DNA of 32,000 bases from Thermodesulfobacteriota bacterium (GTDB taxonomy: Bacteria > Desulfobacterota > WTBG01 > JAGOGO01): assembly GCA_026625185.1 (NCBI GenBank), contig CP113000.1:2235622-2267621 (forward strand), written 5' to 3'. This document shows positions 4,618-32,000 of the stretch, in pieces. The position numbers and the translations under genes were made by a program. The notes below the pieces were generated by a model. That model saw nothing but the letters and a program-made list of their open reading frames with translations. It was not told the DNA's origin and ran no database searches. Positions within the stretch are counted from its first letter, which is position 1. Each line of letters opens with the position of its first letter.

Positions 4618-6993
4618 TTATTTTCTCTCGGAACCCTTCTTTGTATTATCCAGCGAGTCACGAACTTTTTTTGCAAGTACATCAATGGTAAATGGTTTTT
4701 GGATAAAGTTTAACTCGTAATCAAGGCATCTTAGAATATTTTTATCGGTATAACCCGACATGTAAAGCACAGTAAAGTCTTTTCGCACTTTTTTAAGCCG
4801 TTCGATCAATTCCGGTCCGCTCATTTTCGGCATCACCACATCAGTGAGAACCAGGTGAATGGGTTTCTTTTCCTGTTCACAAATAAGCAAAGCATCGCCT
4901 CCCGTCTCCGCCACCAGAACATTATACCCTTGGGCGGTTAAAACTTGCACGGCAATTTTACGCACCGCACCGTCATCCTCAACAACGAGAATGGTTTCGT
5001 TGCCTTGGGGCAATACATTAAACTCCGTCTTTTTTTTTGCTTCCACCAGCGGTTCATCAAACCGGGGAAGGTAAACTTTAAACGTTGTCCCTTTTTCCGG
5101 TTCACTATACAGATGGATATTCCCTCCGCTCTGCCTTACGATCCCATACACGGTCGCCAAGCCTAACCCTGTTCCTTTGCCTTTTTTTTTGGTGGTAAAA
5201 AAAGGATCAAAAATTTTTTCGTGAATTTCCTGGGGTATCCCAACCCCGGTATCGGTTAACGAAATTACCACGTAACTGCCCGGAAGCGTGCCAAAATGCG
5301 TCCTGGTATACTGTTCATCTAACTCTACATTGGCGGTCGTAAGGGTAAGGGTGCCTCCCTGGGGCATAGCGTCCTTGGCATTAACCGCAAGGTTGATGAT
5401 CACCTGTTCAACCTCTCCGGGATCAGCCTTGATCATTCCCAGGTCATCGGCGAATGAGGTAATTAGTTCAATTTCCTCCCCAATAATGCGGCACAGCATC
5501 TTTTCTAAATCTTCTAAAATGGAATTAACGTCAATAACCTTCAAATTGAGCGCTTGCCGCCGACTAAAGGCTAAAAGCTGGCGGATTAGATACGCTGCCC
5601 GCTCGGCTGCGCTTTTGATATCGTCAACTCTGGGCCTCAAATGATCATCGGCAGCGAGTTCATTGAGAGCCAATTCACTGTTTGCTTGGATGACGGTTAA
5701 AAGGTTGTTAAAATCATGTGCCACTCCACCGGCCAAACGTGCGATCGCTTCCATCTTTTGCGATTGGCGAAGTTGCGCCTGCAGAGATATCATATCCTGA
5801 AACGCTTTTTTCTTTTCAGTAATATTGCGAGCTGATTCGATTACTGCTTTGACCTCTCCCTGGTCTCCAAGAATGGGAACAGTGCGCACGTCCCAGATCC
5901 TTCCGTCCGAGATGGAAATTTCTTCAAATTCGGATTGTTTGGAACCGAAACTTCTTTGTACCGGGCAGATTGCGCAGGGTTCTGGGCGGGAATGCCATAT
6001 TTGATAGCAGTGTTTACCAACCAGATCGGAAAGGTTTCTGTTCATTATCGCCGCCAAACCTTCATTTGCCCAGATTACCTGAAAGTCGGGATTAATTAAC
6101 ATCAGGCTGTCGGGAATGGCATCTAAAATACCTTGAAATTCCTGGTAAAGGGATCGGTACTTTTTTTCATTCTCCCGCAGTACCTCTTCTGTCTGCTTGC
6201 GTTGAGTGATATCGCAGGAAATTCCGACTGTCCCGATAACCTCGTTCTCTTCATTTACGATTGGCGTTTTAATTTTTTCAACCCAGGTAACCTTTCCACT
6301 CAGAGAAACAATAGACTGTTCGATCACTTTCTTTTGCTTAGTAAGGATAACTTCCTGGTCCTCAGACCGGTAAAGTTCAGCTTCATCTTTAGACCAAATG
6401 TTAAAATCAGTTTTTCCAACTAAGGCTTCGGCACTATAACCAGCGGCTCTGGCAAAAGCTTCATTAACGGCAATAAAACGAGATTCCGAATCTTTTAACC
6501 AGGCCGCGTCCGGGATATTATCAAGAAGAGCTTTTTGCTGGAGCTGAGTTTGCCGCAAGGTTTCTTCGGCTTGTTTGCGTATCGTGACATCCTCGTATAT
6601 GGCTACAACTTCGCCAGAGGGCAACTTGTAAACGAAATTTTCTTTCCAGCCGGATATCCTATCGTCTTGATATAATTTGGTAGGATGAAATTCGGGGTTC
6701 CCAGTTTTCCACACTCTCTTGAACACTTCGAATAGCCCAAATTCCTTAACGCCAGGAAACACTTCCAGTACGGACTTGCCAATGATTGTTTCTTTGGCTA
6801 CGCCTTCAACCTTTTCAGCCGCCCGGTTAAAAGCCTTAAAAATAAAATCCTCGCCATCTGACACTGCCTCGTAGATGGCTACACAATTGCTCATGTTTTC
6901 GAACAGCTGGCGGAACTGTTCCTCACCCGCCCGCAACGCCTTCTCTGCCTGCTTGTATTCGGTGATGTCGCGGATTGATTCTATGGCTCCCAC
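4618..6993 (-). CDS. multi-PAS hybrid sensor histidine kinase (PAS repeats, HisKA, HATPase_c, C-terminal receiver)
   Basis: H-box AGGVAHDFNNLLTVI, G-box GTGLGLATVYGIV and receiver ILVVEDD...LVLTDVVMPKMSG are present. Repeated ..RDITE/QRKQAEE.L PAS boundaries occur. The listed GTG start is probably not a true N-terminus: the frame continues upstream to an in-frame TGA at 7033-7035 (see findings). Confidence 0.9.
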   Translation of the reverse strand: MGAIESIRDITEYKQAEKALRAGEEQFRQLFENMSNCVAIYEAVSDGEDFIFKAFNRAAEKVEGVAKETIIGKSVLEVFPGVKEFGLFEVFKRVWKTGNPEFHPTKLYQDDRISGWKENFVYKLPSGEVVAIYEDVTIRKQAEETLRQTQLQQKALLDNIPDAAWLKDSESRFIAVNEAFARAAGYSAEALVGKTDFNIWSKDEAELYRSEDQEVILTKQKKVIEQSIVSLSGKVTWVEKIKTPIVNEENEVIGTVGISCDITQRKQTEEVLRENEKKYRSLYQEFQGILDAIPDSLMLINPDFQVIWANEGLAAIMNRNLSDLVGKHCYQIWHSRPEPCAICPVQRSFGSKQSEFEEISISDGRIWDVRTVPILGDQGEVKAVIESARNITEKKKAFQDMISLQAQLRQSQKMEAIARLAGGVAHDFNNLLTVIQANSELALNELAADDHLRPRVDDIKSAAERAAYLIRQLLAFSRRQALNLKVIDVNSILEDLEKMLCRIIGEEIELITSFADDLGMIKADPGEVEQVIINLAVNAKDAMPQGGTLTLTTANVELDEQYTRTHFGTLPGSYVVISLTDTGVGIPQEIHEKIFDPFFTTKKKGKGTGLGLATVYGIVRQSGGNIHLYSEPEKGTTFKVYLPRFDEPLVEAKKKTEFNVLPQGNETILVVEDDGAVRKIAVQVLTAQGYNVLVAETGGDALLICEQEKKPIHLVLTDVVMPKMSGPELIERLKKVRKDFTVLYMSGYTDKNILRCLDYELNFIQKPFTIDVLAKKVRDSLDNTKKGSERK

Positions 6994-7032
6994 GCGGTTT
7001 CCCTGGGCATCAAAAAACGGAGCGACTGTTTT

Positions 7033-7767
7033 TCAGACATAAGCTCCCTTTCCTCCATATAAGGCGGGGGTAAAGGCCTCCGCATACAGGGTATTTCCCC
7101 TTCGCTGAACATACTGATATTTGGATTCGAGTTCCGGGTCGGTTACATCAATGAGATCCAACAGGTGAGTGCGCCGTTCACCGTAAAAAGGAATTGTTAC
7201 TGCATTATCTCCCTGCCCTATTATATCTTGCTTTTTGAGCCCCGTCATTTCTTCTATTGCTCGGTTCCAGGCAATGACCTTCTTATTATTGTCAAGTACG
7301 AACGTCGCGTCCGGAAGAAATTCAATAATGTCATTTAGCTTTTGGTTTGAGGAAATTAACGCTTTCTCGGCTTGCCGGCGCTCACGCCTTATGATTACAT
7401 CACGAAATGCCCGCTCAATCGCGGGGATCAGAAGCTTTATATTTTTTTTCTTGAAAAAAGCATGGGTACCCGATTGCAAACATTGAAGCGCAATGTCTTC
7501 GCTCATGGTATCGGAAACAACAATAAAAGGCAGGTAAAGATTTTTTTCTTGCAGCAAAGCGAGGGCTTCTAAGGCGGTACATTGTGATACCAAAAAATTA
7601 GAAATAACCACATCCCAGGTCTTCTGCTCGAGAGCCATTTTTATGGTTTCCGGGGAATTAACGCGTTCAAAGAGTAGGTCAAAGCCACCACCTTGTAATT
7701 CATTGGTAATTAAACGGGTATCATCCTCTGAATCATCGATGATAAGAACTCTTAGCGAATTGGTCAT
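7033..7767 (-). CDS. receiver-like domain plus the first two thirds of a PAS domain; likely the N-terminal part of the downstream kinase
   Basis: 244 aa. It has a REC fold (RVLIIDDSEDD...PFIVVSD...FFKKK), but Asn sits at the phospho-acceptor position (WDVVISNF). A PAS start follows (LNDIIEFLPDATFVLD...VIAWNRAIEEMTG). It ends at a TGA in frame with ORF 4618-6993. Confidence 0.8.
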   Translation of the reverse strand: MTNSLRVLIIDDSEDDTRLITNELQGGGFDLLFERVNSPETIKMALEQKTWDVVISNFLVSQCTALEALALLQEKNLYLPFIVVSDTMSEDIALQCLQSGTHAFFKKKNIKLLIPAIERAFRDVIIRRERRQAEKALISSNQKLNDIIEFLPDATFVLDNNKKVIAWNRAIEEMTGLKKQDIIGQGDNAVTIPFYGERRTHLLDLIDVTDPELESKYQYVQRRGNTLYAEAFTPALYGGKGAYV

Positions 7768-7819
7768 TTTCCCTTCCTCCCTTTACTAATCAGTGCATAA
7801 AATAGTTTGCATTTTTAAT

Positions 7820-8178
7820 TAGCGTTTTCAAGCCGATGTGTTTCCGAAATTTCTGAGACGATTGGCAAGCCAGAGCATAGGCAAGGTATTCCTTATTATT
7901 GAAGGTCATCCCGTTCATCGGTCTCAAAAGACCAAAAAATAGGCAACCGAACATAGGGACATATTCGTTTATTCTTTTTGCCCAGCTACCGCCCGGAACT
8001 TAATCCTGACGAGTTGCTTAACCAGGATGTAAAGAGCAATGCTGTGGGAAGACGTCGCGCCAAAGATCAGCAAAAGTTGGTTAAAAATGGACGAGGTTAC
8101 CTGCGTAACCGTCAACGTCAGCCTCATGTGGTCAAGAAATATTTTTGCCAAAAACATGTTCGGTATGCTGCAGCATAA
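7820..8178 (+). pseudogene. IS630-family transposase remnant (C-terminal ~115 codons, 5'-truncated, one nonsense codon and one frameshift)
   Basis: Frame 1 reads FLRRLASQSIGKVFLIIEGHPVHRSQKTKK-TAG(7940-7942)-ATEHRD. After a shift near 7958 it reads HIRLFFLPSYRPELNPDELLNQDVK.... FLPxYSPELNPxE is the IS630/Tc1-mariner DDE signature. I saw no inverted repeats. Confidence 0.75.
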
Positions 8179-8254
8179 TTTGCAAACCTTTTATTGCTCT
8201 TATTAATAATATGAAACAGTTATTGTTGTTTTTTCCTGCGTAGCCGCCTTTTGA

Positions 8255-9037
8255 CTAATAAACCTTAATGTCATCCCCTTTTTGGCTCTTCAGCTTTTTT
8301 TGGGCACTTCCCTCTCTTACGGAAATTTCCAAAAAATTTGAACTTCCGATGATAGCGAGCAACGTTCCTTTTTTAGCCTCTTGATAATTTTTAGAAAGCC
8401 CAGAAATAATGTTTTCGCGAATTTTGATTTTACCGGGGGCGTTTTCTAATTTTTTCAGGTGGTTCACGGTGATGTTGGTTATTAGATTTCCAAAACTATC
8501 GATATACATTACCTTACCCCTTATCCTTTTTTTCTCCAAAATTGGCTGAGGTAAAGATAGTCTTTGAAAATTTTTTGTTTCTTTCCCCATTTCCAAAGGG
8601 GAAACTCCCCGGGAAAGATATGCAGCTACGGGCGCAAAGATATCCCGGCCATGAAAGGTAGCGCTAACGGGTTTGAGAAAAAAATGCGCATTGGTAAGTT
8701 CATAGACCGAAATTTTTTTTAACTGATCATAGATTAACCCAAAAATTCCATTGTCCGGCCCAATAAAAAAGAAGTTTTCTCCTTTCACCAGGATTGGTTT
8801 GCGTTTTGACCCCACACCCGGGTCAACGACGGCAAGGTGAATAGTGCCTTGGGGAAAATAAGTATAGACACTACTGAGCAAAAAAGCTCCTTCAACTATG
8901 TTTTGAGGAGAAATGTGATGGGTAATGTCTACAATTGTAGCAAGGGGGTTAATGCCCAAGATAACCCCTCGCATGGCGCCAACGTAGTGGTCTTTAGAAC
9001 CAAAATCAGTCAATAACGTGATAATAGGATGAATCAT
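8255..9037 (-). CDS. SAM hydroxide adenosyltransferase / chlorinase-fluorinase family protein (former DUF62)
   Basis: 260 aa. ITLLTDFGSKDHYVGAMRGVI, VVDPGVGS and GPDNG match the family N-terminal domain. Confidence 0.88.
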   Translation of the reverse strand: MIHPIITLLTDFGSKDHYVGAMRGVILGINPLATIVDITHHISPQNIVEGAFLLSSVYTYFPQGTIHLAVVDPGVGSKRKPILVKGENFFFIGPDNGIFGLIYDQLKKISVYELTNAHFFLKPVSATFHGRDIFAPVAAYLSRGVSPLEMGKETKNFQRLSLPQPILEKKRIRGKVMYIDSFGNLITNITVNHLKKLENAPGKIKIRENIISGLSKNYQEAKKGTLLAIIGSSNFLEISVREGSAQKKLKSQKGDDIKVY

Positions 9038-9609
9038 ACAATGCCAAAGGTCAAAAACGAAGCCATTGTGTACACCATTATAAAGGACCCGTTTGCCCTG
9101 TCTGAAAGCCTTCTAAAGTGGAATTATATTATACTATTTTTAACACGTTAGCAATGTTTGCGAATATTGTTATTTGATATTCGGTCGCATTTTAACCAAA
9201 AAAAGTTTGGTCTCAAAAAAAGAAACAGTTTTTTATATTCTGATTTAAAAAATAAATTTATTAACTAATTGTTTTTTATTGACAAAATTAGATCTAAATG
9301 GTAAAAAATATATTAGGGGTTAAATTCACACATAACCAAAAGGTGAAATGTGTTTATCATAAAGTCTTTCCTTACTTCACTATGGATGGAGAAAAAAAGA
9401 TGCAGGTACATTCCCTTCTGGTTCATCACGTTGCCCCTGACTATCATTGAAAAGTTTTTCCATGTCCTTTCCCCTGATGACTTCCCCTGTAAAACAAGAG
9501 TAAATTTTACGGTTGCCACCGGTCAAGAATATAGGTTAAACAAAGTATGGGTGACCAAGAAATTTCGAGGAAACATAATTTAAAACCCAATTAGGAAAGG
9601 AGGGACATC

Positions 9610-9897
9610 ATGGCAGTAAAGGTTCTTATCCAAAGGAAAGTAAAACCGGGAAAAGAAGAAGCACTCAACGACCTCGTCCGCGAGTTACGTTTTAAGGCAA
9701 TGTACGCCGAAGGATTTATCTCCGGAGAGACCTTGAAGTCTATCCAAGATCCCTCAATGCACTTAGTCATCAGCACCTGGAAAAACATTGAGACCTGGAA
9801 TAAATGGCTTAATGGTACATACCGGCAAGAGGTTAAGAAAAAGATGAAAGAGGTTTTAGTGCGACCTGAAAAGATGACTCCCTATCAATACGAGTGA
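9610..9897 (+). CDS. antibiotic-biosynthesis-monooxygenase (ABM) domain protein
   Basis: 95 aa, with a strong RBS AGGAAAGGAGGG. The size and the pattern VLIQRKVKPGKEE...GFISGETL...HLVISTWKNIETWNKW fit the ferredoxin-like ABM fold. Confidence 0.75.
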   Translation: MAVKVLIQRKVKPGKEEALNDLVRELRFKAMYAEGFISGETLKSIQDPSMHLVISTWKNIETWNKWLNGTYRQEVKKKMKEVLVRPEKMTPYQYE

Positions 9898-9933
9898 TTT
9901 ATTTTTTTCAGTGTAGGGATTAAAAGTGACCTT

Positions 9934-10470
9934 ATGGATGGTTTCAGGGTAAAGCCAGCTGAGCTACTCGTAAGTTACGTAAGCCTCTTTACTGCAGGAA
10001 AGATAAACGGCCCGATCTTAGATCTGGCGTGTGGTGATGGTCACAACGGAATATTTTTAGCTCAAATAGGGTTGGAGGTAATTTGTTGCGACCTATCAGA
10101 GGAAGCATTGAAAAGCGCCCAAGAGCTTGCAGCGGTGCAGGGCGTGAGCATCAAAACCTGGTGCGTGGATTTAGAAAAAGATGGAACCAATCCTCTCTCC
10201 GAAGATTTTTACGGAGGAATGGTGGTTTTTCGATACCTCCATCGGCCGCTCATAAACTGTATAAAAAAGGCTTTAAAAAAGGGAGGGGTTCTTATCTATG
10301 AAACCTATACCGTGCGGCAACCTCAGTTCGGAAAGCCACATAATCCTGACTTTCTCTTAAAGCCGGAAGAACTTCAAAATTGGTTTATTGATTGGGAGAT
10401 CATCTATTTTTTTGAAGGGATCAAGGAAAATCCCAAAAGAGCAATAGCGCAGATTGTCTGTAGAAAGTGA
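9934..10470 (+). CDS. class I SAM-dependent methyltransferase
   Basis: 178 aa. Motif I is ILDLACGDGHNGIFLA, followed by the acidic CCDLS and post-I motifs. Confidence 0.85.
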   Translation: MDGFRVKPAELLVSYVSLFTAGKINGPILDLACGDGHNGIFLAQIGLEVICCDLSEEALKSAQELAAVQGVSIKTWCVDLEKDGTNPLSEDFYGGMVVFRYLHRPLINCIKKALKKGGVLIYETYTVRQPQFGKPHNPDFLLKPEELQNWFIDWEIIYFFEGIKENPKRAIAQIVCRK

Positions 10471-25089: not shown

Positions 25090-26098
25090 AGGGCGTGTTG
25101 CCCAAAGCTCTTTGAAATCAAAATAGTTCAATGCGACGGGATTAGGCTTCAGTATATACCGAGTTCATTATAGCAACCGGTAAAGCATGCCCAATTTGAT
25201 GAATCAGGTTGCTCATTGAAGCAAAAGCCAAGTTTGTTGCTTTTGTAAGCGCTTTTTAACCTGGTTTAATGCCATCGCAACGGGTTTTTTTGGCATAGCG
25301 CCATACTTTACTAACACCTGGATGTTCTGGATAGCGCAGACAAGGTATTCCTGTATTCGCATCCGCCAAAGTTCTCGCCACCGGGCTTGGTCATAACCAT
25401 AACGCTTAGACCAGGCAAAGGAACGCTCCATCAAGTGTTGTCTGGTTCTTAAGTCACGCCTGGACTTCGACGAGCGGCGCGCTTCCAGCATATGATAGTT
25501 TTCATGAAGCTGGTGCTTGAGAGATTTGGTGTCTAAAACAGACTTATTGGAGGCATTGGCATCAATGAGGCTTGAATCGATGAAAATTTTACTGCCCTCT
25601 ACCAATCCGGCTTCAACGCACTGGATGAAAATGCGCTCGAAAAAGCTTTTAAAAACCTCTGAGCCCCATTTCTTTCTCGCTTTGGACAAAACACTGTGGG
25701 TGGGAATCTCAGAGTCTAAATCAAAATCCAAAAACCACAGCCAATCAATCCGCTCCGGAATTGTTTCCATCAACTCACGTTCCGAGCGTACATTTTAGAA
25801 GATAAGCAGAAGCATAAGCTTTAAGATAACCGGCGGGGGAACGGAGACATTGCCATTATGGCCGTAGCATTCATTTACTTCCTGATAGATAAAGTCAAAA
25901 TCTATGACCTCGCTCACCTTTCTCAAAGGATGGTTCGACCGAACTCGTTTATCAATGTTAATGTCGTAATGAAACAGGCTTCTTTGTGGCCTTTGCTGCA
26001 TTCCCATCATCGACGAAAACTCCTTGAATCGGTGTTTAATATTGCAGCATTATATCATTTAATTTTTTCTTGGAATACTTATTTGGGCAACACGCCCT
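25090..26098 (-). mobile_element. IS1182/IS5-like insertion sequence, internally deleted and nonsense-mutated, with intact 17-bp terminal inverted repeats
   Basis: AGGGCGTGTTGCCCAAA at 25090-25106 is the exact reverse complement of TTTGGGCAACACGCCCT at 26082-26098. These repeats bracket the transposase remnants. At 1009 bp the element is far shorter than intact family members. Confidence 0.8.
25213..26010 (-). pseudogene. IS1182/IS5-family transposase pseudogene (in-frame TAA at 25795-25797; DDE core missing)
   Basis: The N-terminal DUF772-like part reads SLFHYDI...NHPLRKVSEVIDFDFI...VILKLMLLLIF-TAA-NVRSERELMETIPERIDWLWFL. The C-terminal part reads HLMERSFAWSKRYGYDQARWRELWRMRIQEYLVCAIQNIQVL, a typical IS1182 C-terminus. 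The catalytic region between them is absent. Confidence 0.8.
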
Positions 26099-26465
26099 CA
26101 AAAGGCTGCTCTCCCACCAGTTCCTTGAGTCTGGTATTCTGTTCCCTGAGCTGTTTGACTTCAGTTTGAGTGGCATCACGAAGACTGTCTGCCTTTAGAC
26201 GGGCTTTGCCTTCCATAAAATCCTTGAGCCAGGGATAATACAGGGCAGAGGAGATCCCTTCTCACCGGCAAAGGTCGTAAATCGGCATCTCCTTGCGGAA
26301 GCCCTCCAATACGATCCTGATCTTGTCTTCGGCTAAAAACTTTCGGCGGGTTTTAGCCCTAATTTCCCTTATAGCGTTGCTGCACTGTCTGCCCTGCCGG
26401 TTACTTGTTCTTTTTGTTCTTGGGTAGTTGTTTCCATGGTCTTTTCCCTTTCTGACTGCTTCCAT
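26099..26465 (-). pseudogene. IS3-family OrfA (HTH transposase subunit) remnant, nonsense-mutated and truncated by the neighbouring IS
   Basis: It reads RRKFLAEDKIRIVLEGFRKEMPIYDLCR-TGA(26262-26264)-EGISSALYYPWLKDFMEGKARL...TEVKQLREQNTRLKELVGEQ. This is the HTH plus leucine-zipper layout of IS3/IS911 OrfA. It ends exactly at the inverted repeat of the IS1182-like element, and no OrfB is present. Confidence 0.7.
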
Positions 26466-26633
26466 TATAGTCGTCTTTTCCACCCAGACCAACCTTAAAA
26501 GTGCAAAATAAAATTTGTCCGGTTCTTTCCAATCATTGCTGAAGATGCACACCTCGGTTCATGGTTCCACAAGTTCACCATGAACCGACCGCGGGTAAGA
26601 TACAGTCTCTTTGGGTAAGGGGAACCGAAATGT

Positions 26634-28370: not shown

Positions 28371-28442
<72 letters not shown>

Positions 28443-28464
28443 ATTATGTTTATATTACAATATA

Positions 28465-29514
28465 TTAGCAATAATCTTCTTTGCCTTCAAATCGTCTTGG
28501 TGTCCAATTAGTGTCCAAAAGATTATCCAGTTTCTCTACCGCTTCCTGCACAAATTCAGGTGAAAGATGCGAATACCGCATAGTCATTTTGATTTCTTTA
28601 TGGCCCATCACCTGCTGGATTGTTCTGGGGTTCACCCCTTTCATGGCTAGATGCGAGCCAAACGTATGCCTGAGATCGTGAAACCTAAAATCCTCAATTC
28701 CCGCCTTCTTAAGGGCGGAGGAAAAACTCTTTTTAACGTCCTTGAACGGATTACCATCTCGGCCAGAAAAAACATGCGCACCCTTGTTTGATTTCTGAGC
28801 CAAGATCAAGAGCTCCTGATAAAGGGTACGATTGATCGGAATCACCCTCGACTCATTATTTTTCGTATTAACTACCGTAACTTTTCGGTTCTCTAAATCC
28901 ACGTGTGACCATTTTAAAGTAAGGACCTCAGATCTTCTCATGCCAGTGTTTAAAGCAGTGACAACGATGGGTCTAATGTGCTCGGAACAGGCTTGAAGAA
29001 GGGTTTTAATCTCCTCCGGTTTTAAATATCTCAGACGGCCAGGTGGTTCCTTAAGGAGCTTCACTCCCTTTGCCGGATTGATCCTTGCATAACCCCATTC
29101 CATGGCTTTAGTATACATATGCTTAAGACAGGCCAATTCCCGATTTACCGTGGCTGGTTCTACTTTTTCCAACCTCATCGCCTTATATTTCTCAATCAAC
29201 TGGGGTGTGATTTCAAAGAGATATTTCCCTTGAAAGGTAGCTTTAAGGCTGTTGGTACTAAAACGATCACTCCGCTCATAGGTTGCAACCGATTTATTAG
29301 CCTTGGAATATTCCAAATACTCCCGGACATACTCTTCAAAAAGAATCTTCTTTTCTTCCAGGACACCGAGATATTCTTTTTTGGCAATCTTTACCTGGAC
29401 ATCCATTAAGACCTGCTCCGCCAGTTTTCTGGACGGGCCAACCTTCTTCCTTTTCCGCCTGCCTTTCAGATAATAATCTATATACCAGTTGGTCCCTTTT
29501 TTATAGATTCCCAC
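28465..29514 (-). CDS. tyrosine-type site-specific recombinase / phage-type integrase
   Basis: 349 aa. The GTG start has an AAGGAAA RBS. The N-terminal SAM-like domain reads GIYKKGTNWYIDYYLKGRRKRKKVG. The catalytic residues are present: R (GMRRSEVLTLKW), HxxR (HDLRHTFGS) and Y (MTMRYSHL). Confidence 0.93.
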   Translation of the reverse strand: MGIYKKGTNWYIDYYLKGRRKRKKVGPSRKLAEQVLMDVQVKIAKKEYLGVLEEKKILFEEYVREYLEYSKANKSVATYERSDRFSTNSLKATFQGKYLFEITPQLIEKYKAMRLEKVEPATVNRELACLKHMYTKAMEWGYARINPAKGVKLLKEPPGRLRYLKPEEIKTLLQACSEHIRPIVVTALNTGMRRSEVLTLKWSHVDLENRKVTVVNTKNNESRVIPINRTLYQELLILAQKSNKGAHVFSGRDGNPFKDVKKSFSSALKKAGIEDFRFHDLRHTFGSHLAMKGVNPRTIQQVMGHKEIKMTMRYSHLSPEFVQEAVEKLDNLLDTNWTPRRFEGKEDYC

Positions 29515-29605
29515 TATAGTTTCCTTACGTTATTTTAAAATATAAACTTAGCACGTTTTTAAAAATTAACAAGATCAAAATAAAAATTCAGGATAGTTCC
29601 ACGAA

Positions 29606-32000
29606 TTATAAGAAATCCTTTTTTTCCTCCTCTTTAGTCCGTTGCTTAAGCCACTCTTCCAGGTCTTCTCTCCTGAACTTTACCAGACGTCCCACCTTAA
29701 CATGGGGAACCTTCTTTTGAACAATCCACTCGTAAAGAGTGTTTTTGCTGATTCCTAAAAACTGAGAAGCCTTGGTAGTATCCAGTAATTGTTTCTGTTG
29801 GGAAATTTCTTCAGAAACAACCCTCTTTTCAGAATCCATACCCAAAATCGGGGGGCGGTACAAAAACTCTTTTACCTGGGAAGGAAGGAGAAAGCGAAGC
29901 CTTTCCCACTCCCGTAAGGTAAAATTCTTGCGGGACTCTTTCTTGAGTAAAGGGATGCGCTTTTCATCCGCGCACACGCAGATCACATAATCGTATCCGG
30001 CATCAAGACATTTTCTGATGTTTTGAACTTCCTGCCCGGCTTTCGAAGTGCTGGAAATTTCGATCGCCACCCTGACATCGTCTCGCTTCAATCCCACATC
30101 CACGCTTTCCAGGGACCGCGAAATTCTTTCCTCGATTCTGGCCTTCCATCCATAAAGCTCCGCCTGCTCTTTGAGCATGGTCTGGAGGTGGGTATGAAGG
30201 TCCCCGCCTTTTCCCTTCAGCAGGGATGACTTTTTAAGAATTTCCTGGCCCTGTCCGGTGAGGGTAAGGACTTTGGCCAGGCGTCCCCCTTTTCCTTCCC
30301 GGGTCTCCTCCTGAACGAGCAGATCTCTTTTAATCAATTGTTCCTTCAGCCGGTCTCCTTTATAGCCGCTCAAGCGCAGTTCCTTATATACCTGGGTCAC
30401 AAACATTCCCGGATGTTGGGAGATGAATTCGAGAAGAAGCTCCGCATCCGCAGGGAGTTTTTCGTCCAAAACCGGTTCCGCTTCCTGACGCCGCACCCGC
30501 TTTGACTCTGCTTCTTTTAGGGCCTTCTCGTGGGGTTCGCTCTTCTTTGGTTCTATCAGGGATGGCATTGGAGTCGTTTGCTTTTGGGTCGGGGTTGTCT
30601 CAATCTCCTTCTTGGGGCGACTATAGCGGCTACGGGAAAGCGCGATCAGTTTTTCCTGTTTTTCCTTTAGAGCTTCCGGCGTAATTTCAGACGGAAGCGG
30701 AACGCTGAGATTGAAATCGAACTCCGCCCGCTCGACCCTTACCAGGGCCTCACCGATTCCCAGATTTTGGAGGTCCTCGGCCCCAAAAGATGAAAACCCT
30801 TCCGCCAGTTTCTTGGCATCAAAATCTCCCAGCCGAAAGCAAATCCTGGTATAGGGGTTGGAGATCACGGAATTGGCCACCTCCGTGTCCCGGTTCCAGA
30901 GCTGCCTGAGTTCCTGGTGAGCCAGGATGAGACCCAGGTGGTATTTTCTCGCGCCGGAGAGGATCGCAGCCATGGAGGGAGTGATAAAATTCTGGAATTC
31001 GTCGATATAGAGATAGAAGTTTTCCCTCTCGGTTTCGGTTTTCGCCTGTCTGGACATAACGATCTGGTGGAGCTTGGAGACAATGAGCGTCCCCAGGAGA
31101 TAGGCGTTTTCCTCGCCAATGAGTCCCTGGGCGAGTTTAGCCAGAAAGATTTTTTTGGTGTTTAAGATCTCCTCAAAGTTAAGCCCTTTTTTCTGCATCA
31201 CCAGGTTGCGGATAAGCTTGGGCCTTAAAAAAGTATCCAGCCGGGTGAGCACCGAGGCCTGGGGTTTTCCGGCCAGAAGAGGAAACTCTTTTTTCCAGTA
31301 ATAGACCACTTCCGGGTCTTTTACGGTAGAAAGAAAAGCATTTCGAAAATCCGGCTCCACCAGGAATCGCCTGAGATCAACTAAGGTTCCGCCCTGTTCG
31401 CTTTCCAGAAAGGCCAGGATGGCATTACCCAGGACCGAGGTCATCTGATCGCCCCAGCTGGTGGAAAGCCTCCGGAAGACCGCCACTAAGTCTGAGGATA
31501 AAACGTTCTTTTCAATCTCGGAGTGGCTGGAAAGGATATTGAGGCCGATGGGATACTCGGCATCTGCCGGATCAAGGAGCACCACATCCTTGTACCTCTC
31601 TTCAGGTATAAACCCCAAAATCTTGTCAATCAAATCTCCATGTGGGTCCAAAACCCCCACGCCTTGGCCGTTGGTAATGTCCTGGATGACAAGGTTTAAA
31701 AGCAGGGTGGATTTGCCCGTGCCGGTGGCGCCCACCACATAGGTGTGGCGTAGCCTTTGTTCGGTGCCCAGACCCACGGTTACGGTTTTCCCCTGGTGAA
31801 GGTTTTCTCCCATGGTGAGTTCATGGCCCAGAGCGATTTTGGGAGCGGCTTTGGTTTTTTTCGCCTGCCGAAGAAGTTTCTTGGACTGCACGGAAACCGA
31901 AGGAAGATGCACCAGGGAGACCAGCTCTTCGTTGTTTAACAGCATACCGAATCGGCGGCTCTGGCGGGAAAGAACATCTTCCTGATGAAGAACGTCATCA
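29606..32000 (-). CDS. large multidomain protein: TraD/VirD4/HerA-like P-loop ATPase, linker, wHTH, PD-(D/E)xK-like module and excisionase-type HTH; N-terminus probably beyond the right edge
   Basis: Walker A VGATGTGKS lies at 31709-31735 and Walker B YLYIDEFQNF at 30986-31018, with ARKYHLGLILAHQ also present. The C-terminal ASQFLGISKNTLYEWIVQKKVPHVKVGRLVKFRREDLEEWL is a MerR/Xis-type HTH. The frame stays open upstream of the listed Met (31945) to base 32000 (...DDVLHQEDVLSRQSRRFG-M). Confidence 0.85.
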   Translation of the reverse strand, partial: DDVLHQEDVLSRQSRRFGMLLNNEELVSLVHLPSVSVQSKKLLRQAKKTKAAPKIALGHELTMGENLHQGKTVTVGLGTEQRLRHTYVVGATGTGKSTLLLNLVIQDITNGQGVGVLDPHGDLIDKILGFIPEERYKDVVLLDPADAEYPIGLNILSSHSEIEKNVLSSDLVAVFRRLSTSWGDQMTSVLGNAILAFLESEQGGTLVDLRRFLVEPDFRNAFLSTVKDPEVVYYWKKEFPLLAGKPQASVLTRLDTFLRPKLIRNLVMQKKGLNFEEILNTKKIFLAKLAQGLIGEENAYLLGTLIVSKLHQIVMSRQAKTETERENFYLYIDEFQNFITPSMAAILSGARKYHLGLILAHQELRQLWNRDTEVANSVISNPYTRICFRLGDFDAKKLAEGFSSFGAEDLQNLGIGEALVRVERAEFDFNLSVPLPSEITPEALKEKQEKLIALSRSRYSRPKKEIETTPTQKQTTPMPSLIEPKKSEPHEKALKEAESKRVRRQEAEPVLDEKLPADAELLLEFISQHPGMFVTQVYKELRLSGYKGDRLKEQLIKRDLLVQEETREGKGGRLAKVLTLTGQGQEILKKSSLLKGKGGDLHTHLQTMLKEQAELYGWKARIEERISRSLESVDVGLKRDDVRVAIEISSTSKAGQEVQNIRKCLDAGYDYVICVCADEKRIPLLKKESRKNFTLREWERLRFLLPSQVKEFLYRPPILGMDSEKRVVSEEISQQKQLLDTTKASQFLGISKNTLYEWIVQKKVPHVKVGRLVKFRREDLEEWLKQRTKEEEKKDFL

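Follow-up and report, generated by a model that had tools for sequence, protein, structure and literature searches.

What is the role of a very large gene that joins a DNA-translocating type of ATPase to nuclease-like and DNA-binding modules and lies beside an integrase gene? The question is raised by the end of a 32,000-nucleotide stretch of the genome of a Thermodesulfobacteriota bacterium (GenBank assembly GCA_026625185.1, contig CP113000.1, positions 2,235,622 to 2,267,621 of the forward strand), referred to here as the window. We have extended a sequence-only reading of this DNA by investigating the complete large gene, its neighbours and its relatives. Our answer, which is tentative and held at somewhat less than even confidence, is that the large gene is a backbone DNA-processing or translocation gene of small integrative mobile elements. 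Support for this reading comes from the conserved pairing of the large gene with a small partner gene, from a fixed position proximal to a recombinase gene, and from a C-terminal helix-turn-helix (HTH) domain, HTH_17, which tracks the class of that recombinase. A recurrent HTH_3/HTH_36/RuvC backbone, a VirB4-like N-terminal fold, a coupling-protein-like ATPase and the GC content of the cassette provide additional support.

A frame of this size could itself be an artefact, consisting either of an assembly join or of decayed genes read through by chance. Translation confirmed the single unbroken minus-strand frame of at least 797 codons reported previously, as 29606-31999 contains 797 sense codons with no stop before the window edge and the stop codon occupies 29606-29608. 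The window holds the 3' 71% of the gene (29606..32000, minus strand; 797 codons and the stop; identical to the protein P0001), the other 330 codons lying past base 32000. Extension of the contig past 32000, proposed as the route to the missing N-terminus, recovered it: ~330 extra codons specify a domain resembling the VirB4 N-terminal domain and complete a gene of 1127 codons on contig JARDUJ010000048.1 (GCA_029216095.1, a Thermodesulfobacteriota metagenome-assembled genome, MAG). The identical 1127-aa protein is present on three contigs, one of them from a second (sister) MAG, and more than 30 independently assembled homologues of 49-69% identity have equal length and equal domain order. Catalytic residues are invariant along the entire length of the protein and its predicted structures are confident (pLDDT 84 and 90). 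The occurrence of the same protein in independent assemblies, combined with homologues of shared architecture, therefore indicates that the gene is neither an assembly artefact nor a one-off fusion. Nothing was found in favour of the artefact explanation, which the sequence-only reading had raised as a possible refutation and which now has practically no probability.

The fusion is conserved throughout a very large family: more than 5500 relatives were detected in a search of 5.8 billion protein clusters, most of them 1010-1230 aa in length, and species-representative genomes contain more than 600 loci. That the architecture was not recognised as a described system agrees with our literature searches, which found no publication on the large-gene architecture or on the three-gene module that it forms with the partner gene and the integrase. 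The large protein carries generic names in public sources. Precomputed Pfam matches include DUF8128 (PF26449), marked as faint in most loci, and this family was not reported in our own Pfam scan of the large protein.

The N-terminal ~390-395 residues, encoded outside the window, have a confident predicted fold (pLDDT 84, pTM 0.81) which, among PDB structures, comes closest to the N-terminal domain of TrwK, the VirB4 protein of the R388 type IV secretion system (E 3e-5, TMq 0.41-0.43 over ~370 columns). The top Foldseek matches are all TrwK chains, with E 3e-5 to 4e-4 and TMq 0.37-0.43, a VirB4-like assignment made at fold level only, with no sequence model supporting it. The same N-terminal fold, together with a related ATPase, is observed in proteins of ~550-900 aa from the Bacillus phages Slash (U5Q0H6), G (gp155 and gp156) and JL and from SPO1-like phages.

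The ATPase domain (P0001 residues ~395-760; 30710..31807, minus strand, as are all domains of the protein given below) was identified by Pfam and PDB sequence matches as a P-loop domain of the type IV coupling protein (T4CP)/VirB4/HerA class. It scores above the Pfam cut-offs of TrwB_AAD_bind (36.9 bits, cut-off 20.5), DUF87 (28, cut-off 23.2) and TraG-D_C (24.3, cut-off 22), which upholds the FtsK/HerA/TraD class proposed previously. The TrwB_AAD_bind match spans residues 77-412 of the window frame and is found in 37/37 aligned homologues; within PDB, IcmO/DotL and TrwB, both coupling proteins, are nearest in sequence. Both nucleotide-binding motifs reported previously are present, at positions which on recomputation differ from those noted. 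Walker A, GATGTGKST, is located at 31706..31732 rather than 31709-31735, with G420, G423, G425, K426 and T428 invariant in 37 homologues and the remaining positions at least 90% conserved, and Walker B, FYLYIDEF, at 30995..31018 rather than 30986-31018, with D663 and E664 invariant in the same set. The third ATPase motif of the sequence-only reading, ARKYHLGLILAHQELRQL, was found in the translation.

Membership of a more specific family is not indicated, as the score of the ATPase lies far under the threshold in all curated family models for TraD, VirB4, HerA and FtsK that were scanned. NCBIfam TraD models gave 43.9 bits against a threshold of 366 and the VirB4 model TIGR00929 gave 24.4 bits against 643.1, with no match to CagE_TrbE_VirB; Pfam FtsK_SpoIIIE gave 18.1 bits (cut-off 24) and Ftsk_gamma gave no match. 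A transmembrane segment was absent from the large protein in a simple hydropathy scan, as opposed to a dedicated predictor, the maximal 19-residue Kyte-Doolittle mean being 1.12 and none exceeding 1.4.

Downstream of the ATPase, the Pro/Lys/Glu/Thr-rich linker that had been described was located at 30455..30619, a low-complexity segment rich in Glu, Lys, Pro and Thr corresponding to unconserved columns of the homologue alignment. An AlphaFold2 model of the C-terminal 288 residues (pLDDT 89.8) contains three compact domains. The first is a MarR-type winged helix-turn-helix (wHTH; 30215..30454; model pLDDT >90), for which Foldseek returned MexR, MepR and MarR with E ~1e-3, so that the winged-helix-like segment noted at ~30250-30445 belongs to the MarR-family folds. 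The winged helix is confined to a subclade which also carries HTH_17, phmmer matches being obtained only in loci L001, L003, L004 and L021.

The second domain (29855..30214) has a PD-(D/E)xK-fold, nuclease-like structure in which a helix, three strands, a helix and a strand follow one another (pLDDT >90 in the region). It was identified by fold search alone: Foldseek matched it to Bax1, EcoT38I, AF1548, Can2, R.BspD6I and the R2 restriction-like endonuclease domain with modest E-values of 2e-4 to 4e-3 for the three-domain query, sequence searches of PDB and Pfam gave no significant match, and only sub-threshold Pfam matches to Uma2, AHJR-like and Mrr_cat were obtained. The H/E/D/E core previously noted at 29966-30199 had been attributed either to a PD-(D/E)xK or to a Replic_Relax-type domain. 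The former attribution stands on the predicted structure, while the latter lacks sequence support, no similarity of the wHTH-nuclease module to Replic_Relax or to any relaxase model scanned being detected. Invariant residues are H932, Q936, E953, D964, E977, E987 and N990, with K993 almost invariant. The classical (D/E)-x-K position reads E-I-S in the third strand, and any lysine would come from the next helix. The domain is likely, though not certainly, catalytically competent. It is present in every long-form member of the family and, in a profile search, in 2549 representative clusters, always near a C-terminus; it appears to be specific to this large-gene family. Candidate stand-alone wHTH-nuclease proteins were rejected, as the matches look like truncated family copies and the domain lies at a near-constant distance from the C-terminus. 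A metagenome scan with the C-terminal 288 aa matched one short contig.

The third domain, at the C-terminus (29639..29788), is an excisionase-family HTH which passes the cut-offs of both HTH_17 (55.1 bits, cut-off 27) and TIGR01764 (48.3 bits, cut-off 28.8), in agreement with the Xis/MerR-type HTH that had been placed at 29642-29782. Within the large gene, GC content falls from ~0.52 to ~0.40 where the HTH_17 module begins (window ~30000-32000 compared with ~29600-30000; 6001-9500 compared with 9501-10000 in the coordinates of L001), and the GC content of the HTH_17-coding end matches the lower value of the integrase gene. This drop to the level of the integrase gene would fit an origin in which the xis of a former xis-int module became fused to the large gene.

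The large gene has a conserved companion. Immediately upstream lies a gene for a 289-aa partner protein; its stop codon overlaps the large-gene start codon, and the two genes are translationally coupled. Partner homologues abut or overlap the large-gene start in 19/23 loci of the first analysed set, and with a partner hidden Markov model (HMM) the gene was detected in almost every long-form locus, across phyla that include Thermodesulfobacteriota and Bacteroidota. A membrane-type hydrophobic segment is present in 15/19 partner proteins. The partner protein has no match in Pfam, PADLOC or PHROG, and no fusion of the partner to the large protein was found among the retrieved homologues.

Directly downstream of the large gene is a tyrosine integrase gene (349 aa; 28465..29514, minus strand; Pfam Phage_integrase, E 1.6e-38). 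The adjacency reported previously is correct, but the gene coordinates give a spacer of 91 bp (29515..29605) and not 92 bp. A tyrosine integrase is found downstream of the pair in L001, L003, L004 and L091-L093, and is listed as directly downstream on the same strand for L001, L004, L091, L092 and L093. At other loci (L011, L013, L017, L018, L022, L024, L025, L027 and L100) a large serine recombinase is located directly downstream on the same strand. The class of recombinase is replaced between loci, with its position and orientation kept. HTH_17 follows this replacement: 7/9 loci bearing the domain have a tyrosine integrase and 0/9 a serine recombinase, compared with 1/20 and 12/20, respectively, of the loci without it. 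On this correlation HTH_17 is a candidate recombination directionality factor for the adjoining integrase.

Integrases at this position are 64-75% identical (window compared with L003, L004, L091 and L093) and the large proteins 52-64%. The compared integrase loci come from Thermodesulfobacteriota, Schekmanbacteria and Brocadiia, with two further metagenome loci, and include three phyla. These levels of identity across phyla indicate that the partner gene, the large gene and the integrase move together.

The integrase gene is followed by a tRNA-Thr(CGT) gene (28371..28442, minus strand; ARAGORN; Rfam 68.1 bits), which starts at its 5' end 22 bp past the integrase stop codon; the same order of integrase then tRNA is found in L003, L091, L092 and L093. 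A tRNA gene follows the module in 8/9 HTH_17 loci (Thr, Arg, Met, Gly, Arg, Gly, Gly and Arg), starting 3-22 bp past the integrase stop in five of these eight, and in 0/17 of the HTH_17-negative loci scanned. Elements normally replace the 3' part of a tRNA gene, and it is unusual for a complete tRNA gene to have an integrase against its 5' end. This arrangement of integrase stop and tRNA, on the same strand, is located at 28371-28465 in the window, 14186-14198 in L003, 11479-11483 in L091, 11543-11558 in L092 and 11453-11459 in L093. In each case a complete tRNA lies downstream of the integrase and its identity varies by locus, a layout which mirrors the usual order of an island 3' of a tRNA. 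With an integrase so close to its 5' end, it may be asked where the tRNA gene has its promoter and if its 5' part is provided by the element. Within the 3' end of the integrase gene (28528-28543) there is a 15/16 repeat of a 16-nt stretch of tRNA-Thr (28414-28429), 114 bp away, possibly by chance (E ~0.15).

The element can be followed further to the left on the sister contig, L095, where a total of ~12.3 kb carries, from left to right, an HTH_3 (Cro/CI-like) regulator, an HTH_36/DnaD-like replication initiator, two RuvC-like genes, cargo, the partner gene, the large gene, the integrase and tRNA-Thr. The cargo consists of an aspartyl-protease-like gene, bPH_2, a formyltransferase-like gene, PIG-L and Nudix. 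The block of regulator, initiator and RuvC genes recurs together with the pair in L003, L096, L016 and L023, and on the 11.6 kb contig of P0006 the block and the pair are present with no cargo between them. A primase is encoded in L097 along with a further T4CP-like ATPase, which is short, and a short ATPase of this type (~390 aa) is added in several loci. Smaller-looking loci also occur, L004 consisting of toxin-antitoxin pairs and the trio and L092 of a ribbon-helix-helix (RHH) protein and the trio; for both, the flanks that were obtained are free of replication and RuvC genes. The tandem, distinct RuvC-like resolvase genes that follow the HTH_36/DnaD-like gene are observed in different phyla, at 3320-4393 of L095, 3861-4902 of L003 and 5555-6595 of L096, all outside the window.

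The composition of this backbone bears on an explanation in which the large protein controls recombination or maintenance, either as an FtsK-like motor that activates or orients the adjacent recombinase, as FtsK-gamma does with XerD at dif, or by resolving or segregating replicated copies of the excised circle together with the RuvC-like genes. The large gene adjoins tyrosine or serine recombinases, HTH_17 co-varies with the tyrosine class, and a replication initiator and two RuvC-like resolvases are present in the same element. FtsK itself is laid out as a motor, a low-complexity linker and a C-terminal winged helix, a parallel that also counts for this explanation. However, the FtsK_SpoIIIE score is below threshold (18.1 compared with 24 bits), no FtsK-gamma domain was detected, the N-terminal domain resembles that of VirB4 and coupling proteins are the nearest relatives of the ATPase. 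Furthermore, the minimal-looking loci L004 and L092 lack replication and RuvC genes in the flanks obtained, and activation of a recombinase needs no nuclease domain. We consider this explanation improbable.

The side of the pair away from the recombinase varies, carrying type I restriction-modification genes, as in the defence cargo of L091, toxin-antitoxin pairs, RHS-like proteins or sugar-modification genes. Neighbours of 1300-1570 aa which cluster together are found in Bacteroidota (L019 13209-17915, L022 4633-8619 and L027 3079-7110); from their repeat-rich sequence these are probably RHS/YD-repeat toxin-like proteins. The two-gene cassette has a GC content of 0.50-0.55 compared with 0.33-0.44 in its flanks.

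Such surroundings could also suit a pair that is itself cargo, serving in defence against invaders or in entry exclusion, in which a membrane-tethered ATPase loads on incoming phage or plasmid DNA and the PD-(D/E)xK domain cuts it. We regard this as a serious rival, though somewhat less likely than a role in mobility. The best PADLOC match of the ATPase is mad8 (E 2e-19), a gene needed for MADS defence, and weaker matches to DndH and defence-type HerA (PADLOC) and to DptH (PDB) were obtained. Two-gene operons that encode an ATPase fused to a nuclease are a typical form of defence system. The GC content of the cassette, which differs from its flanks, and neighbours that include type I restriction-modification, toxin-antitoxin pairs, CHAT/TPR proteins and STAND-like NTPases point in the same direction, as do the islands of L004 and L092, which may hold little beyond the pair, the integrase and small genes, like a minimal cargo islet. 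The Bacillus phage homologues could serve superinfection exclusion. In contrast, no complete known defence system is present, mad2-mad7 are all absent, and neither the partner nor the integrase has a PADLOC match; the mad8 model derives from HHpred alignments to PDB entries and may be generic for the ATPase class. Three further observations would be unexpected for exchangeable cargo: the rigid placement and orientation beside the recombinase persist when the class of the latter changes, the excisionase-type HTH is seen, among loci with a recombinase found, only beside tyrosine integrases, and the trio is co-inherited across phyla. The MarR-type and excisionase-type DNA readers, in addition, suggest specific sites rather than foreign DNA generally. 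Conserved gene order, joint inheritance with the recombinase and the association of HTH_17 with tyrosine integrases lead us to lean to a role in mobility over one in conflict.

If the large gene functions in mobility, the small partner would anchor an oligomeric motor at the membrane, by positional analogy with VirB3-VirB4, and the excisionase-type HTH would work with the adjoining tyrosine integrase on the attachment sites of the element. The winged helix and nuclease would recognise the excised element and then cut or nick it, a step with a likeness in the MOBC relaxases, which have a restriction-endonuclease fold. The ATPase would move the excised DNA, perhaps handing it to a co-resident conjugation pore in the manner of an integrative mobilisable element (IME) with its own coupling protein; alternatively, it may act more autonomously, like TraB of actinomycete elements. 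In the mobilisable case the large protein would combine a relaxase-like module with a coupling protein, the PD-(D/E)xK domain being the candidate for the relaxase part. The strongest version, that one polypeptide and its membrane partner excise (with the recombinase), cut and pump their own 6-12 kb island out of the cell, seems doubtful to us. Were it true, it would represent a minimal, pilus-less DNA transfer comparable to the TraB type of Streptomyces in many non-actinomycete phyla, namely Thermodesulfobacteriota, Planctomycetota, Acidobacteriota and Bacteroidota.

Several observations weigh against a mobility role, beginning with the mad8 match described above. Long-form loci exist with no recombinase within 10 kb, for example L010, L014, L019, L021, L029 and L094, and the locus counts are small and phylogenetically non-independent. 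Direct repeats of the tRNA or flanks of the att type were not found on the left side of L001, L095, L003, L091-L094 or L012, where only chance-level repeats of 10-16 nt occur, and the ends of the element are not defined because no att repeat was found. In the element we found neither a known relaxase family nor a mating-pore component (VirB6, VirB8, pilin) nor an oriT, the relaxase and mating-pore result referring to Pfam families among the called genes of L001, L095, L003, L004 and L091-L093, without dedicated MOB/CONJscan models. Finally, homologues of the N-terminal domain and ATPase are carried by phage G, Slash, JL and SPO1-like Bacillus phages, in which conjugation is not expected.

The distribution of the family extends beyond these elements. 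No full-length relative was found in cultured plasmids and phages, where only distant ATPase-domain matches of 22-35% identity occur. IMG/VR contains only three full-length relatives in 2.9 million viral contigs, and the family is not typically scored as viral. Cultured carriers are available in Bacteroidota, Mucilaginibacter pankratovii and Mesoflavibacter zeaxanthinifaciens DSM 18436. A shorter form (residues ~110-800, ~30% identity) is very common in Patescibacteria (L030-L089, a set which also includes other loci). The partner HMM detected no partner homologue beside these short forms and recombinases are rarely near them; they may be a separate functional class. Five proteins of ~1190 aa (P0069, P0087, P0088, P0097 and P0113) have hydrophobic, probably membrane-spanning N-terminal segments followed by an ATPase domain and lack the VirB4-like N-terminus, and P0087 at least ends in the same nuclease domain. 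Within the window, short minus-strand transposase-like frames at 25213-26552 (DUF772 match on the source contig), 2-3 kb beyond the tRNA, look like insertion-sequence remnants.

How most genomic islands are transferred is not known, and here a very large gene and a small partner recur by a recombinase in small islands of many, mostly uncultured, phyla. If the pair is a transfer or processing machine, it would define a compact and widespread class of mobile element in which a conjugation-type ATPase works without a full type IV secretion system. If the pair is a defence system, it would be a new membrane-linked ATPase-nuclease type missed by current defence catalogues. Either way, a testable role is provided for a family known at the DUF level (DUF8128) with thousands of members, and the cultured Bacteroidota carriers permit experiments.

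Comparison with known systems places the large gene beside several of them and within none. It differs from coupling proteins, VirB4 and actinomycete integrative and conjugative elements (AICEs), and perhaps from mobilisable elements, in the features which define these groups, having no membrane anchor, no relaxase or mating-pore genes and sub-threshold scores. Its likeness to the type IV coupling proteins (TrwB/TraD/VirD4/IcmO-DotL) lies in passing TrwB_AAD_bind and TraG-D_C and in being borne on mobile elements. In contrast to these proteins, it has a VirB4-like N-terminal domain in place of an N-terminal transmembrane anchor, no relaxase or mating-pore genes were found nearby, and a C-terminal nuclease and two HTH domains are present; TraD, FtsK and TraB all have transmembrane segments of their own whereas the large protein has none. 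As to VirB4/TrwK and VirB3/TrwM, its predicted N-terminal fold is nearest to TrwK, and a small membrane-type gene lies immediately upstream, like virB3 in position only. It is unlike them in that there is no sequence-level VirB4 match, the partner has no similarity to VirB3 and no other type IV secretion genes are present. The MOBC relaxases, such as TraX of pAD1 and MobC of CloDF13, have an HTH followed by a PD-(D/E)xK-fold domain of the restriction-endonuclease fold and act on mobile-element DNA; the module described here has no detected similarity to relaxase models and is fused to an ATPase.

MADS combines, among other genes, mad1, an HTH protein, and mad8, an ATPase; the MADS model requires mad6-8, and mad8 is essential for MADS defence. 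The large protein resembles both components, as its ATPase matches mad8 (E 2e-19) and its terminal HTH matches mad1 (NCBIfam MADS1 E 1.5e-10; PADLOC E 5e-6). Membership of MADS was nevertheless rejected: only mad8-like and mad1-like domains are found, both in one protein, neighbouring genes have no PADLOC match, methyltransferase, kinase and mad6/mad7 genes are absent, and the NCBIfam MAD1 score is below its cut-off (41.2 compared with 80 bits).

Finally, the FtsK/SpoIIIE proteins, including TraB, are unlike the large protein in that its winged helix is MarR-like and not FtsK-gamma. Unlike those of the AICEs, the hosts here lie outside the actinomycetes. The ATPase does not belong to the FtsK_SpoIIIE family, lacks a membrane domain and is joined to nuclease and excisionase domains, and transfer of the element is putative. 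The IMEs and AICEs (TraB) nevertheless resemble the element described here in organisation, being small integrative elements with an int gene, an xis-type domain, a replication initiator and one ATPase from the FtsK/HerA superfamily with a C-terminal winged helix. pSAM2 has a Nudix gene, and this element also carries one.

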